From NCBI GenBank assembly GCA_038087875.1, contig CM075988.1, forward strand, positions 5,456,001 through 5,520,000: a stretch of 64,000 nt of DNA. The letters run 5' to 3'. The position numbers and the translations under genes were made by a program. How positions within the stretch are numbered: position 1 is the first letter of the stretch; the number at the start of each line of letters is the position of its first letter. Shown here piece after piece: positions 22,476-31,084 of the stretch. The notes under the pieces are model-generated. The model was not told the origin of the DNA, did not search any database, and was given only the letters and a program-made list of their open reading frames with translations. Origin of the DNA: Malacoraja senta. Taxonomy: Eukaryota.

Positions 22476-22994
22476 GATGAAGACTTAAAGATGGGTATGG
22501 ATGTGGTGGGCTGAAATACCTGTTTGTGTGCTGTAAGGTCATAATCTCATGTTCATAAGTTCATAAATGTTCTGGGAGCAGAATTAGGCCATTCGACCCA
22601 TCAACTCCACGCCGCCATACAATCATGGCGGATCTATTTCTCCCTCCTAACCCCATTCTTCTGCCTTCTCCCCACAACCCCTGACACCCGTACTAATCAA
22701 GAATCTATCTATCTCCGCCTTAATAATATCCATTGACTTAGCTTCTACAGCCTTTTGTGGCAAAGAACAGTAAGATTAAACGAGAACTTACCAGTTTGAA
22801 GTTTGATCTTTATTTTATGAGGAGTTACGTTGGTGATTACGTGAAGAAGACCCTTCACGGCGCATGCGCGTCAATCTTCAAAGCAGCGGAATGAAATCAC
22901 AGTCAACACAATAATTGAAGTAACATATTAAGATGAGCAACGTGAGAACTACTATTATGACCTTTTTTTATGAGAGAGGGTTGGGCGTGACGGG

Positions 22995-23106
22995 CACGTA
23001 ATCACCAACGTAACTCCTCATAAAATAAAGATCAAACTTCAAACTGGTAAGTTCTCGTTTAATCTTACTATTTTACTTTGGAGTCACGTGAGTGACCACG
23101 TGAAGA
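22995..23106 (-). repeat. DIRS internal complementary region (ICR)
   Basis: 22995-23069 is the perfect 75-bp reverse complement of 22769-22843; 23071-23106 matches the reverse complement of 27471-27506 with 2 mismatches. Confidence 0.92.
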
Positions 23107-23329
23107 TTTCAAAGCTCTGTGATTTTATGCCGCAGATTCAAATCCAGGCCTCACTGCATTGATTGACTTTCGATGAGAAACAATCAATAATGCGTTAAAC
23201 ATGAAATGGTAATATCATGCAATAACAATTGATTTGAATAATCAAAACAAACAGTAACCTGTCTATCCCAGAGGAACTAAACAGGACTTAATACTGAATT
23301 TGCAAACAGCCTCTCTCCGATCGGCGATC

Positions 23330-24230
23330 GGCCGATGGTAAAAAAATGTTTTTAAATAATTCATTTGACCACCCGGCACCTATAAAATATGGCCGCTGTG
23401 AACATCCATCGTCCTAGCCGACGACATTGCTGCTGCTCTAGTGGAAAATGGATATATACACTTCAGTGTTAATACCTGCCTTAATCAACATTTGCTTTAA
23501 ATCACCTTGAGATAGTCTGCACTGACACTCTCCTGTGTGGCTTCATGTAACTGATAAACAATGCTGTTTCCACATTCCTTAAGGTCTTTATAGCTTTAAT
23601 ATAATGAAAATAAATGTGCCATTACACATAAACATGGATCAGTAGGTTATGCTGAAACACAATTTTAACAAACCTGTGACACCTGGCCTGCTCTGCTTAA
23701 GCAGTACGCAATTATATAACATAACATTCTCTTCAGCAACTTCCATCCTGTCTAGAAGTTTTTTCAAAATCTGCACTTGCTATGCTGAACCAATGCCAAG
23801 AGCATAACCCCTTTCATGATTAGTTTGGCAAATTCAGCGACATGCCAGGAACCTACTGTGGAAACATCTTGCGGACCTCACACATCCCAGATCGCCATAT
23901 ACCTGGGTTTAGGAGGTTTAGAGTTGAAATTCCTTTCATCAATCCAGCTATGATATGATGAAACTCAATAGGATCTTTCCTGACCCCATCCAACCCACAG
24001 GATGACAAAGCACTTAAAGCTGTATTAATGGTGCTATAACTGAGCCCCTCATCATCATAGAGAGTCAACAGGAACTCTAAAATATCCGCAATACCTGTAG
24101 TATTATAGTCAATATTATTTTATACACAATATTGCTCTCATTTTTTTACATAAGTAATATACCCCTTTTGAGTACTCTTTCTCCAGGCTACAGTGAGCAT
24201 GTCCACCGTAAACCCAGACAGTCCTTGCTC
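23330..24230 (-). pseudogene. DIRS tyrosine recombinase, frameshifted
   Basis: GLSYSTINTALSALS..GLMKGI; C-terminal STRAAAMS..AGWSNE. Confidence 0.8.
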
Positions 24231-24309
24231 CAGTTATGGCCTTCTTAAAACCTGCAAATGAACAAGTCAATACAATCACATAACAGATGACTTTCCCATG
24301 TTAGCGGAT

Positions 24310-24625
24310 GCTCCAGTCAATTCCTACGCTTGGGAACCACCAAAAAGAGGTTGGATCCCTAACTGTAACATCAAAGGGAAACCATGCTTGATTCGGCCAA
24401 TTAGGTATTACAAGCAGCCCCAAAGTGGCATCCTGCTTGATTTCTTGCAGACTCCGACCTATTAGGCAAAATGGTAGGAAAAAATATATATATATATATT
24501 CCACCTCAATGTCAAAGTATTAATTGCAACTGCCACCTGGTCTGGTTCTCATGAAACCTATTTAGGCATCTGATGGTTGACCTTGATGCAAAACAAATCG
24601 ATATCTGGCATTCATATACAAGTAC
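24310..24625 (-). pseudogene. DIRS methyltransferase-like domain, disrupted
   Basis: PDIDLF..; PFCLIGRSLQEIKQDATLGLLVIPNWPNQAWFP. Confidence 0.75.
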
Positions 24626-24639
24626 TATATTATTGAACA

Positions 24640-25272
24640 CCTCCTTGTTGAACATTCAATCTACGTTGTCATGGAATGTTCGTGACTTGGCGTCTGCTAC
24701 TATATAGAATCTACCTGGTAGATAAATAGCTGAAATATCTTTTCCAATGCACCAGGCCCAAATTTGATTAGCCAATCTGTCACAAATTACCGACTTGATT
24801 CCACCAATGTGATTAATATATATGCCACTTGCGTTGTATTGTCAATCTGAAACTGAACATGCAGATACATTTGTTAGAGCAATAAGCCTTGTCCTTAAAA
24901 CCTCTTAATAGTTAATTGCCCATGTCTGCAGAAACGATGCCTCTTGCTCAGTCCATCTGCCTCCACAGTTGAAACTCGTATCCGTGACACCCCACCCGAG
25001 TGCACTGACATTCATCTGCAAAATCATGGAAGGCTGGTCAAGCATTACCTTGCTATAACTCCTGGACACATGGTGAAACCATTGCAAATTAACATAGTCT
25101 TTACTGATAACTGCATAGGTCTATTATAATGACCCGAATGTATCCTTAATGCCTTAATTAGCTTGATACAGCTGTCAATTAGCTCTACCCTTTTTTCCCT
25201 GGGCAGAGCACTTAATTGAATCAATTGTGAGCCAAATAGTCAGGTGTTAATTTGGATTTCTCTGGATGGATC
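24640..25272 (-). pseudogene. DIRS RNase H plus C-terminal remnant of RT
   Basis: VSALGWG..GGRWTEQE..IN; HVQFQIDNTT; PGR..VADAKSR; IHPEKSKLTP. Confidence 0.75.
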
Positions 25273-25559
25273 AGCAATCAGTGACTGAGCAGCAATTTTA
25301 GAGGCAAACGTCCACTGCTTACCCTCATGCATTCAGCATGGGGTCCCGGCACATAGCCATGTTTGGATTCCTGTTTGGAGTTAATCCATACTAACCTTAG
25401 ACACTCTTTTAGAGGGGGACTTATCGAAGCTGAAGCAGGTATCACCATCCATCTCCTCCATTTGCTTGTACATGCCTCTGTACCAAGCATGTTGTTCGAC
25501 TCCATTCCCCACAATCTTATCACATATGTGTGTGGCTCCATCTTCATCCACTATACATC

Positions 25560-25965
25560 CACGTGGGAGGACTTATGCAACCTGCAACAGGAGCTGCCCC
25601 AGGCCTGTGTGCATGTATTTTAGCACCATCTCGACCACTACGGAGAAACCGAGTGGGAGTAATGGCAGCCCTGCAAACAGGTGTTGCTTCAGGCCCATGT
25701 GCATACTCCTGTAGCACTCTCTCGACCACTCCGCCATTTGAGTGGGAGAAATTTTGGCAACCCTTTACTAGGCGTCACCTTAGGCATGTGTGCATGTATT
25801 TTAGCACTATCTCGACCACTGTGGTGCACCAAGTGGGAGGAATGGCAACCCTACAAACAGGTGTTGCTTCAGGCACATGTGCATCCTTCTGTAGCACTCC
25901 CTCGACCACTCCGACCCTTGAGTGGGGGACTTTTGCAACCCTTTACTAGGTGTTGCTGCCTGACA
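25560..25965. repeat. ~90-bp tandem array (about 4.5 units, ABAB 180-bp higher order) inside the DIRS
   Basis: gtggga/gtgggg recurs at ~25563, 25653, 25742, 25833, 25922; ctcgaccact and tgtgcat in each unit. Confidence 0.8.
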
Positions 25966-28900
25966 TGCCTTACGATGGAGCGTTCTTGAATTGCAACAAG
26001 ACGCAATGTTGTCTGACATTGATACCCCTGATTTGGCACTCACTCTGAGTTGGGGTTATCAGGTCGCTGCCTACAGCAGCCACCAGGACTAGCCATGCAA
26101 TTCGATACTCTGTTGGTATCCTCCTTCCCCAAACAGGCTGCACGTGCTAGCGACTCCAAATCATGCTCCTTCCCGATGCCAACTCCGTCTATATGGAAGA
26201 ATTGGAGTACCTCTGGCCCCCATACATCAGACATAGTGGGAAATGCTGGAACAAGCTTAACAATTATTTGTCATAGCCAAAGACATTTATGTGAATGAAG
26301 AGGCCCATCCCAGTTAAACCTGGGCTTTATTTACTTGTACTATGAGTAAACCGGCGTCTTGGGGAAGAAACCGTGCATAGTCCCTTTTAATGAGCAGCAA
26401 TTACTATGACGCCACCTGGTGTAACTCCCACAGGTGACTGATAATATGGCTCTACAAGGCTTCCCATCTCCTTAATTGAATAAATGATAATCATCTATCT
26501 CAGTATAATAGTCACAATGTGACCAAGTGGTAACTATAATGTCTACCCTTTTGAACGCTTCTCAAAATTGCATTCGTCTTTAATTTGGAGTGCAACCTGA
26601 AACCTCCTCAGAATTAGCAGAAATTGCTACTTTTTCACCTCGACACATAAGGGTGATAAACCACTAATCTCTCTTCCTGAGTTGAGGTTGGAGTCAGCCA
26701 CACACTGACCCTTTGTACTCCTCTCCACTGAGGAAGTGATAAGCAGCCCTGAGCCTTACTCCTCTCCACTGAGGACATACATATATAACAGAGGGGACCC
26801 TCCTGGCCAGGCTCCACATATTTCAAACATATATGGGATGCCAAAGTCAGGTCCTTCCTCAATGAGCCGGGTAGTAACCCGACGACCATGCTCAGTCTGC
26901 ACCCCCACTCGGGAGTCGCTGACCTTACTGTCAGCGACTCTCTCAAGAAGTCCGACGGCCACCGGCTCCTCACTTTACCGTGGACCGTAGCCGGTATCCC
27001 CGCGGTCTAGAGAACCCCGCAGCCCCTATTTAAAACATATCTCTGGAGTCGCTGACCTGCCTGTCAGCGACTCGAAACAGCAAGCCTAACAGCCACCTCT
27101 ATGGTGACCACAGCTTGCTTCAACCCGCGTCTATAAATAAACCCGCGGCCTGAATTAAACCTCGGGAGTCGCGGACCGTTCTGTCCGCGACTCCACCAGC
27201 AAAACCCACCGGCAGCCTGCTACCGCACTCCCGCGGTCCGAAGCCGCATCCCCGCGGTCCACAATTTCTCCGCGGTCCACCGGGTTTTTACTGAAATTTC
27301 CATGTCCACCAGGAACCTGGGGAAATGATTTCTGCAACGGACAACCTGAAAAGTAAGTTTAAACTTACCTGCAGGATTTTTTCAAACTTACCGCTGGAGA
27401 ACTCTGTTCCTCCCAGCCTGTCTGCGCCAATGCGACCGACGTAATGACGCGCATGTGCCCTGACGGGTCTTCTTCACGTAGTCACTCACGTGACTCCGAA
27501 GTAAAATTCCACAGATTCACCACAATATGATTAAAGAAATTCCTGCTCATCTGCTTCCTAAAGGAACGTCCTTTAATTCTGAGACTACGACCTCTAGTCC
27601 TAGACTCTCCCACTAGTGGAAACATCCTCTCCACATCCACTCTATCCAAGCCTTTTACTATTCTATACGTTTCAGTGAGGTCCCCCATCATGTATAAATC
27701 TATGACTGAGGTTCCGCTATCTTCATCTGCAATATTAATGATACGGCACGGTGGGGTAGTTTGCTGATGCAATGTTCACAACTCCTCAGTAATGACACGG
27801 TCAATGCCCACTTACTGCAGGAACAGAGCAACATTCAGGCACCCTCCTTTTTACAGGAGACTTTCAAATTCCTACCATCCACTTTGTTCAGAAACATTTC
27901 CTAACTTTAATTTTGAAATGCCGAGTTCCAATGTTCAGAAACGAGGCCATCGTCCAAAGTTCCCAGTCTGCAAAAAAAAATTATGATTTAGAAAAATGTC
28001 CTTCAGCCTTCTAAACTTCAGCCAATGGAACCTTACTTTCTATAATCCCTGGACAAATTAATCCTTGAAGTCCAGGTATATTTCTGATAAAATTTGCAGG
28101 AGGATCTTGATCGGTTGGGCAGGCGGGCTGAAGATGGTGAATGGAATTAATGGTTGATGCTTAATACAGAGAAATATGAGGTGTTGTGTTTTGGGAAGTC
28201 TAACATGGCAGGACCTAAACAGCGAATGGTAGAGCTCTGGAAAGTGTCATAGAACAGAGGGATCTAGGAGTGCAGGTGCATAGGTCCTTGAAAGTGGCAG
28301 CATAAATTGATGGGGTAGTCAAATTGGTCTTGGTCAGTCAGAGTTTTGAGTACAGACGTTAGGAGGTCATGTTGCAGTTATATAGCATATTGGTGAGGCC
28401 ACATTTAGTGTATTGTGTTCAGTTTCGGGCACAATTTCAGTTATAGAAATGATGTTGTCAAGCTGGAAAGGGTGCAGAGAAGATTTAGAATAATGTTGCC
28501 AGGACTCGAGGTCCTGATCTATAGATAGAGGTTGAGCAGGCTAGGACTCCAGTCCTGGAGCACAGAAGGATGAGAGGTGATCTTGTAGAGGTATACAAAA
28601 CCATGAGGAGGAATAGGTCAGATAAATGCACAGAGTCTCTTGCCCAGAGTAGGGAAATTGAGAAACAGAGAACATGGGCTTATGTTAAGGGTTGAAAGAT
28701 TTATTAGGAACCTGAGGGGTAACTATTTTACACAAAGGGTGGTGGGTGTATGGAATGAGCTGCCAGAGGAGGTAGTTGAGGCACTATCACAAGAAACATT
28801 TAGACAGGATATGGATATGATAGGTCTAGAGCAGGGGTCGGCAACCTAGGGCCCAGGGGCCGGATGCGGCCCGTAACCCGAAATCATCTGGCCCGTGTGC

Positions 28901-29399
28901 GTATTTTTTTCTGAGGACTTCCGTCATCTAGAATCCGAGAACAAGAGCAGACAGTGCGCGCGGCAAATCTCCGACTAGCTGTGGCGGAAAGCGATTGTTA
29001 CCTAATATTGAGAGACTGTCGAGCGAAAAACAACACGAAGTTTCGCCCTAACTGCTATGAGACAGACAAACAGACTGACATAGAGGGGTGAGAGTAGTTT
29101 CAATACCAGTGTCTCAAACTAACTGCTATGTTCAGTAGACATAATGTTGCTTAATTATATAAATATGTCAACATTTAGTTAGTACTAGACTAAGTGGGAC
29201 CCGTTGGGTCCCATGTTCACACGTGAGGGCTGGTCCCCCAACGCAAAATTCCACCTCTCCACCAATTCCAATATTGGTGGCCAGCGGGGGGGGGGGGGGG
29301 GGGGGTGAGAGGGTTTCTGGAGCTCTGGTATGGGTGTTGTGGGCCGAAGGGACTGGTTTCCAGAGGGCTAGTATGGACATTGTGGGCTGAATGGATTCT

Positions 29400-29685
29400 T
29401 GGGCTGGCAGCTCAGTCACTCGGGCCTGGTGGGCTGGCAGCTCAGTCACTCAGGCCTGGCGGGCTGGCAGCTCAGTCATTCAGGCCTGGTGGGCTGGCAG
29501 CTCAGTCACTCAGGGCTGGTGGGCTGGCAGTTCAGTCACTCAGGGCTGGTGGGCTGGCAGCTCAGTCACTCAGGGCTGGTGGGCTGGAGCTCAGTCACTC
29601 AGGGCTGGAGGGCTGGCAGCTCAGTCACTCAGGGCTGGTGGGCTGGCAGATCAGTCACTCAGGGCTGGTGGGCTGGCAGTTCACT
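29400..29685. repeat. 30-bp minisatellite, 9-10 units
   Basis: gggctggcagctcagtcactcagggctggt. Confidence 0.9.
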
Positions 29686-29714
29686 TATGGCTATACCTTG
29701 AAATTCCATTACAA

Positions 29715-30058
29715 GCAGAGTGCAGGCCACCACATTCAATTTCATAGCATTTCAGGCAGAGTGCAGGCCACCACATTCAATTTCATAGCATTTCAGGCAG
29801 AGTGCAGGCCACCACCTTCAATTTCATAGCATTTCAGGCAGAGTGCAGGCCACCACATTGAATATCATAGCTCTTCAGGCGGAGTGCAGGCCACCACATC
29901 AATTGCACAGCATTTCAGGCAGAGTGCAGGCCACCACATTCAATTTCACAGCATTTCAGGCAGTGCAGGCCACCATATTCAATTTCACAGCATTTCAGGC
30001 AGAGTGCAGGCCACCACATTCAATTTCACAGCATTTCAGGCAGAGTGCAGGCCACCAA
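29715..30058. repeat. 41-bp minisatellite, 8-9 units
   Basis: cagagtgcaggccaccacattcaatttcatagcatttcagg. Confidence 0.9.
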
Positions 30059-31084
30059 ATTGCCAAACAACTCATTGCATTGTCATTAAGGGCTAACAAA
30101 TCATTTATTGCAAGTATATTGCAGACTCACAGTTCAGTTGATTCACAGCTTAGAATGACAGTTGTGGACTCTCCCTTGTGATCTTCCAAAGTGACTGACT
30201 CACATCTAGGCATCCGGGGTTTTATAGCCCTGCCCCCCCCCCCCCCGGAAGGGGCGTTACCTTCATCGTGGCGATTGACAGACGAGAGGACCAATCAGCT
30301 GATCTCAAGATTTTTTAAACACTCATAACTTATTTAATTTTCATCAATTGGGAAAATCCTCGGGGCTGCCTCAGCGGAGGAAGACTTTGAAAAAGATGAC
30401 CAAAAATCATAGCGATATATGGTAGTGTTTTTTCTAAAATCAATATACAGCGCAGACAGGAAGTGGTCAAGATGAAACGTTTAGTTATATAGTTTTGTTA
30501 TTACCTCCATTTATTAACTATGGCGATAGATGTGGCCCACCATCCACTCACAGACATGGGTCCTGGCCCCTATGCAGAACAAGGTTGCCGACCCCTGGTT
30601 GAGAGGGGTATGGGCCAAGCGCAGGCTGGTGGGGTTTGTATAGATGGGGCATGTTGGTCGGTGTTTACCATACTGTTTACCATACTGTATAACTCTATGA
30701 CTATGACTTGATCACTGGTCCTTCTCATGCCAATCTCTCCTTCCTCATAAGTGGTGTCCAGAATGACGAGATATACAAAAGTAATCAGCGTGGGTGTGTG
30801 GAAGTTTGCAAACTAGTTAGACTTCAAATGTTCAGTCTTGATTAAAGTAAAAATTGTATGCTGAAACTGCTCAATTTCATCTCATTGAACCCAGCTTTAA
30901 AAAAAAAATCATAATCAGACAAATAAACTATATTTAATTAGTTTTAGGATCAGATTGTTGATAGAGGATTTTGCAGCCTGTCTCATGTCTTATTATTTTC
31001 CAATTTACATCAGTGGTTTTTCCATTAATGTGACAGACTCAGCAGTCAAACAAGGTAGGACACACTTTGCTTTAATTTAGACTC

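Follow-up and report, generated by a model that had tools for sequence, protein, structure and literature searches.

What are three regularly spaced, perfect hairpins doing near one end of a decayed retrotransposon? The question is raised by a stretch of 64,000 nucleotides from Malacoraja senta (hereafter the window), in which perfect stem-loops lie at 26913-26940, 27046-27073 and 27166-27193, with spacings of 133 and 120 bp. The sequences, coordinates and spacing given for them in an initial annotation were re-checked and stand, and no further perfect stems of at least 11 bp with loops of 3-10 nt occur in the window; local dinucleotide shuffles (n=15) each contain 0-1 such stems. The hairpin at 27166-27193 lengthens to 12 bp, and because the element lies on the minus strand it is the first in the RNA. 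Its exchange of T-A for G-C with pairing kept, which had also been noted, is borne out as a trait of the whole family at pair 8 of this unit. The array is as follows, in the 5' to 3' order of the minus-strand RNA:

27165..27194, minus strand: hairpin unit 1, first in the RNA, with a 12-bp stem, loop AGAACG and pair 8 changed from U-A to G-C
27080..27119, minus strand: predicted companion hairpin formed from the diverged spacer of unit 2
27046..27073, minus strand: hairpin unit 2, with an 11-bp stem and loop AGGCAG
26913..26940, minus strand: hairpin unit 3, with an 11-bp stem and loop AGUAAG
26850..26886, minus strand: fourth unit, in the original position within gag, now decayed and with its stem lost; by eye it corresponds to the final unit in sister families

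On the element's sense strand the 471-nt hairpin region folds with a z-score of -7.9 against shuffles. The fourth unit shows no strong fold (z -1.7), and the flank of unit 3 still resembles gag residues 28-60 of an intact relative. At E up to 5, no Rfam covariance model matched the hairpins.

The hairpins lie within a non-autonomous member of the DIRS1-like tyrosine-recombinase retrotransposons, with inverted terminal repeats plus an internal complementary region (ICR) complementary to both ends, as in DIRS1-like elements:

22766..27507, minus strand: full-length DIRS1-like element of 4.74 kb, colinear with several genomic copies over 4.7 kb at 94-97%
27445..27507, minus strand: left inverted terminal repeat, matching 22812-22873 and the ICR in inverted orientation
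27301..27303, minus strand: relic gag start codon, at the position of the gag ATG of intact relatives
24248..25209, minus strand: decayed pol relic (RT end, RNase H, methyltransferase), found by tblastn with the intact ORF of the relative L096
23314..24272, minus strand: decayed tyrosine recombinase relic, tblastn E 4e-40 to the L096 ORF
22995..23106, minus strand: ICR, complementary to both element ends
22766..22873, minus strand: right inverted terminal repeat and right end

The recombinase ORF of L096 matches PF00589 above the cut-off, and the recombinase region of the window itself gives a weak match to PF13495; the L096 pol ORF matches RVT_1 (E 1.5e-20) and, below the cut-off, Dam (E 0.003). 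Gag has no Pfam match, and its six protein homologues, four of them named as little-skate proteins, are uninformative for the hairpin peptide. In L096 (2620-6102), L099 and L133, gag and pol are fused in a single frame of 1050-1160 codons rather than carried on overlapping ORFs. The terminal repeat opens with a 6-bp hairpin (27480-27497) with an arm, GAGTCAC, similar to the outer arm of the gag hairpin, and part of the ICR (23080-23096) could pair with this arm over 7-8 nt. The array had been placed in a DIRS 5' region. The assignment to a DIRS1-like element holds, and the array is a relic of the gag N-terminus rather than part of a separate UTR.

The host genome is rich in such elements, with about 16,800 matches to the DIRS terminal motif. 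The window family comprises hundreds of copies at 94-97% identity to the window copy, and a first-look genome scan gave 664 candidates. The heavy decay of the ORFs, as first described, is evident: pol and recombinase persist only as relics, and within the window family there is no intact gag ORF, given family-wide stops and an undetectable gag core. An in-frame gag stop directly follows unit 1 in 45 of 45 three-unit copies, and in a rough alignment four stops in pol and recombinase are common to at least 9 of 11 full-length copies. By this measure the family was already non-coding when it spread and, from the shared stops and the missing gag core, would have needed proteins in trans. Other repeats lie in and around the family. 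Tandem repeats of about 90 nt, strongest at a 180-nt period, fill 25600-25950 of the window in the decayed RT region; they recur in family copies and sister families, where their between-family conservation exceeds that of their flanks. A Ty3/gypsy-like element with an open frame of 1373 codons is inserted into one family copy (L051, 284-4400). Two minisatellites with 30-nt and 41-nt units occupy 29380-30100 of the window, within a non-autonomous-looking repeat that has short inverted ends at 28825-28847 and 30582-30604.

The hairpin motif is found at 818 genomic sites, including sites in other DIRS families. Relatives with an open gag frame have a single hairpin, at gag codons 35-44, where it encodes E-S-L-T-V-R-S-A-T-S. 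A query with the gag core, which is blind to the hairpin, recovered 70 loci, 62 of them with the 5' end in reach; 54 of these have one hairpin, none has two and eight have none, and at least 10 of 11 positions pair in 48 of the 54. The eight copies without a hairpin, some of which are coding copies with in-frame deletions running through it, count against the explanation preferred below. Two to four hairpin copies were seen only in gag-dead families, and a 5' ORF of at least 200 aa is present in 0 of 101 multi-unit copies vs 15 of 58 single-unit copies, a comparison that spans few independent families. The three hairpins of the window are, as far as their sequence tells, tandem duplicates of the single stem-loop of codons 35-44.

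The array appears to have arisen after coding loss by tandem duplication of a 5' gag segment, at least twice and with differing breakpoints. One type of duplication has a unit of about 145 nt that ends at the hairpin, and the other has a unit of 85-89 nt that begins just before it, such that the two overlap only in the hairpin and about 15-20 nt on either side. In a rough tree the two types fall in separate clades and the window family nests in that of the 145-nt unit, on a branch of 0.36 changes per site; the tree used 33 of 42 intended rows (eight lacked the anchor and one was missing), and because some rows are probably mis-anchored its use is limited to the placement of the window family and its long branch. 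A sister family, recovered with a hairpin-free query, has two or three units in 19 of the 20 copies that include a 5' end, and further expansions to three or four units have occurred repeatedly. The sister family's last unit has broken outer pairs (2-3), and the same unit is wholly decayed in the window family, which is evidence against the preferred explanation. So is the tandem expansion of neighbouring segments without the hairpin in the gag-dead copies L185, L197, L201, L220 and L242, where minisatellite-like expansions of 23-nt or 52-nt units in 5' gag exclude the hairpin. Given these hairpin-free expansions nearby, copy number by itself requires no adaptive explanation. Neutral duplication probably explains the number of hairpin copies, and the array in itself results from duplication and is no special architecture. 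An analysis of shared 11-mers was not counted: it found the arms to be some of the few sequences that the window and four relatives have in common, but the relatives had been fetched by the hairpin pattern; hairpin-free queries replaced it.

If copy number is set aside, what remains to be explained is the persistence of the stem. The divergence of loops and spacers noted at the outset is confirmed, and the stems have stayed almost fixed by comparison with single-unit relatives, from which they differ at about 4 of 63 nt (median per copy, with eight of ten copies found by an RT query), vs 23-47% for the upstream flanks and 33-50% for the loops (binomial P about 1e-5 to 1e-7). In a set of 21 hand-chosen lineage representatives, pairing holds in 91% of cells, and changes on both sides are seen at 6 of the 11 pairs. 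The covariation score was reached by none of 500 shuffles, which ignore relatedness, nor by slid partners, and about 6-7 independent double changes were counted by eye. In coding families the double change at pair 10, from A-U to G-C, changes two amino acids. Consensus folding at the hairpin gives -15.4 kcal/mol for the sense strand vs -5.1 for the antisense strand, several lineages have T.G pairs that are valid only in sense RNA, and the hairpin site of L178 reaches a z of -4 to -5 against synonymous recodings. Unit 1 in its G-C form also occurs in contigs from three other organisms; two contigs span units 1 and 2, with a spacer between them so diverged that an alignment at 80% fails.

As for the exchange in unit 1, in the best 30 copies, the right-arm C is present in 30 and the left-arm G in 29, and the half-reverted T-A/G-C state was found at only two sites genome-wide. 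The 20 half-changed sites comprise these two unit-1 reversions, two single changes in unit 2 and 16 other single changes, 15 of them of CpG type; an intermediate subfamily was not seen among them. Unpaired stem changes at the background rate had been named in advance as the result that would speak against a structure. Within the family they are indeed found: single changes are unpaired and near background, with rare non-CpG changes at 0.012 in stems vs 0.015 elsewhere and variants shared between copies at 1 of 66 stem sites vs 35 of 473 others, in a sample partly chosen by the hairpin. Between families the stems are kept. The within-family rates are uninformative, because copies evolve neutrally after insertion, and the between-family comparison is the informative one.

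Several observations run counter to strict maintenance of the stem. Pair 6 is broken (A.C) by a synonymous change in 9 of 33 copies of the coding cluster; the same break is found in another family, where 11 of 24 copies have it in one unit, and in one other organism it reaches 49 of 80 in depth. Distant coding families show only mild structure at the site (z -1 to -2), keep just the outer stem, or pair in another register. Over all naive stems there is no strand asymmetry (sense G.U vs sense A.C, 67 vs 61), and a folding scan of whole elements gives a clear 5' excess in two of five elements and a weaker one in the rest. No enrichment of GANTC as a methyltransferase target was found over whole elements. 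Overall, it is quite probable that selection acts on the hairpin structure as such. The proposal of a structured cis signal is therefore retained in part: covariation, the held stems and synonymous constraint speak for it, but of the roles suggested for it, dimerisation is not supported and translation control is improbable. The complementarity among these hairpin loops is only 0-3 nt, short of what dimer initiation by kissing loops needs, and retention in a gag-dead family makes translation control an unlikely explanation.

The synonymous constraint extends well beyond the stem. In 61 copies found by the gag core, diversity at fourfold sites is 0.22 for codons 1-50, 0.28 for codons 51-100 and 0.16 for codons 101-150, vs 0.40 and 0.55 after codon 150 (P 5e-8 for the contrast). 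Diversity at second positions is not lower in 5' gag, at 0.12-0.17 in the first part vs 0.07-0.13 after it. Low diversity at fourfold but not at second positions is the signature of a nucleotide-level signal that overlaps about 450 nt of gag, and recombination between subfamilies could contribute to it. Fourfold sites in the stem have a diversity of 0.13 (n=5; P 0.03 vs all other sites), and the first loop position varies freely (0.43). Pairing and diversity are correlated (rho -0.40), a relation that is partly circular and recurs after codon 150. The hairpin would thus belong to a cis-acting structured domain of about 450 nt. A second candidate element of this domain is a GACTC-N4-GAGTC hairpin at gag codons of about 70-75 (D-S-x-E-S), which occurs across the distant families L096, L099, L105, L123 and L169.

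Signals that resemble splice sites lie on either side of the hairpins:

GT at 27391 and GT at 27368, minus strand: two GTAAGT donor-like sites in the leader, putatively used in splicing

These sites lie about 175-200 nt upstream of unit 1. One or two such sites are present in the leader of eight of nine coding relatives, and an acceptor-like TTGCAG ends at 24252 on the minus strand, exactly where recombinase homology starts. Donors and acceptor are kept across families (L096, L099, L105, L114, L132, L133). This arrangement suggests that the recombinase is made from spliced RNA, in which case the hairpins, being between the donors and the recombinase acceptor, would occur only in unspliced RNA. 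The retroviral packaging signal psi is likewise positioned after the splice donor and so present in unspliced RNA only, a likeness that depends on the splicing being as supposed here.

The preferred reading, on which confidence is evenly divided, is that the hairpin is a Gag-recognition, or packaging, stem-loop within the constrained 5' gag domain. A packaging role is read from position. It is favoured because psi and the TIPIRT domain of Ty1 are matched in where the domain lies, in its overlap with 5' gag and in its retention by helper-dependent families. As is typical of both, the region lies near the 5' end, extends into gag, has multiple stem-loops over at least 100 nt and is constrained at the nucleotide level. 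DIRS Gag would select the unspliced genome via the 5' gag domain for packaging and reverse transcription. Once gag coding was lost, slippage duplications of the 5' gag segment would be tolerated, and the gag-dead family would still be picked up in trans by the proteins of intact elements. The need for this pick-up may be what led selection to keep the stems while loops and spacers drifted. That the original unit, the one nearest the 3' end, decayed in steps indicates that the extra copies are redundant at least in part.

An unlikely alternative, although the best placed of those considered, is that the stem-loop is a real RNA element that controls splicing or stability. Such an element would retain the intron between leader donor and recombinase acceptor or shield the 5' RNA, and extra copies would give more full-length RNA. 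The closeness of unit 1 to donors that are conserved with their acceptor fits this account, a gag-dead family would also gain by staying unspliced, and the evidence from conservation is identical to that for packaging. However, the account builds on splicing that is itself supposed, an in-frame ATG is found in the leader of just one of the nine relatives, and a constraint over about 450 nt would seem to exceed the need of a splice regulator.

Less likely still is a neutral by-product, in which a chance palindrome in gag was copied by RT slippage and kept symmetrical by template-switch correction without any selection. In the correction of quasi-palindromes, a template switch copies the mutations of one arm onto the other. 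The region does behave as a general duplication hotspot after coding loss, stem-breaking variants have spread, rare changes within the family are nearly as frequent in stems as in the background, and the double change in unit 1 lacks a surviving intermediate subfamily, as a one-step switch predicts. Yet under a simple model, in which correction copies about half of mutations, about 8-10 of 31 pairs should have changed, and one is seen (P at most 0.001). Nor does neutrality account for the suppressed synonymous diversity over 150 codons or for retention in other organisms despite spacer divergence.

The reading of the 28-bp unit as a DNA site is less probable again. Core sites of XerCD/dif-type tyrosine recombinases are 28-bp inverted repeats of 11-6-11 geometry, and the palindrome here has exactly this geometry in an element that encodes a tyrosine recombinase. 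The binder would be that recombinase or another dimeric protein, or else the hairpin would form in single-stranded cDNA. The outer arm has GAGTC(A/G)C in common with the terminal repeat, the antisense strand folds equally well locally, and the cDNA of DIRS-1 is single-stranded, according to the accessible text of PMC7192593. By eye, however, the unit is unlike the AT-rich circle junction in the ICR, the expected substrate of the recombinase, and the published integration model assigns no role to a lone site in gag. Pairs of T.G that hold only in the sense RNA, together with consensus folding, favour the sense strand, and distant families retain a hairpin but change its stem length and register.

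That the symmetry merely reflects an amino-acid repeat in Gag is very improbable: each hairpin does read E-S-x-T-x-R-S-A-T in the ancestral gag frame, but the peptide occurs only once in intact Gag, every three-unit copy has a stop after unit 1, the unit-1 double change is non-synonymous on one side, and only 23 of 300,000 random synonymous recodings (7.7e-5) give the full stem, which rules out such a repeat as the sole source of the symmetry.

An extension of the packaging reading would make the array itself adaptive. In this extension, which is also unlikely, gag-dead DIRS families repeatedly multiplied the stem-loop to outcompete intact elements for packaging proteins, in a defective-interfering strategy. 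The array is surprising only if extra copies bring an advantage; were the competitive multiplication true, it would point directly at the DIRS packaging signal. Apart from this extension, a covarying stem-loop in a domain of about 450 nt offers a concrete candidate location for a DIRS cis-signal. The natural gag-dead families serve as a deletion series in which the stem-loop is kept and the protein discarded. The packaging question can therefore be addressed by assays of binding and by probing, and 5' gag in the DIRS elements of other hosts could be searched for synonymous constraint.

Loss of coding with retention of cis-signals is familiar from LARD- and TRIM-type derivatives of LTR elements and from defective-interfering genomes, which are mobilised in trans. 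The DIRS family resembles them in all three respects, but differs in being nearly full length with decayed ORFs, and the signal that it keeps is a duplicated piece of former coding sequence. The likeness to XerCD/dif sites is confined to the 28-bp 11-6-11 inverted repeat; the site is inside gag, unlike the circle junction of the element, and its geometry is lost in distant families. Closer parallels are found in Ty1. The accessible parts of PMC5454406 describe TIPIRT as a structured cis-acting domain that spans the 5' leader and reaches a few hundred nt into GAG, suffices for helper-driven mobilisation of a mini-element and contains palindromic stems. The DIRS domain is similar in being a structured domain in 5' gag. 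Ty1 differs in its pseudoknot, tRNA primer sites and 7-nt kissing loops (PMC5454406, in the same parts), whereas the DIRS loops are non-complementary, and no primer site is known for DIRS-1 from the accessible text of PMC7192593. Retroviral psi, as treated in the accessible parts of PMC5454406, is similar in having several 5' stem-loops that reach into gag and purine-rich loops. In contrast to retroviruses, the DIRS element lacks both envelope and integrase, and no Pfam family matches its Gag; nor do multiplied stem-loops in defective families belong to the standard features of psi.

Among DIRS elements, the likeness to DIRS1-like members extends to gag, RT/RH/MT, tyrosine recombinase, inverted terminal repeats and ICR, as given in the accessible portions of PMC7192593, PMC3266345 and PMC9210276. 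As cis-elements, those portions describe the ICR, the terminal repeats and a hairpin proposed for 3' priming; neither a stem-loop in 5' gag nor the duplication of one in gag-dead families appears in them, and the word hairpin is not used in those of PMC3266345 and PMC9210276. For Dictyostelium DIRS-1, the accessible text of PMC7192593 reports that the RT acts in trans, that the ICR is required and that a 5' segment is free of siRNAs, which its authors ascribe to presumed protein occupancy. The view that the array is undescribed for DIRS is upheld in the searchable literature, outside of which fall Repbase, subscription reviews and supplements: no account of a 5' gag stem-loop or of its multiplication in DIRS was found there. 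A 5' gag cis-signal of this kind is well known from other retroelements, and the DIRS case would be a new one.
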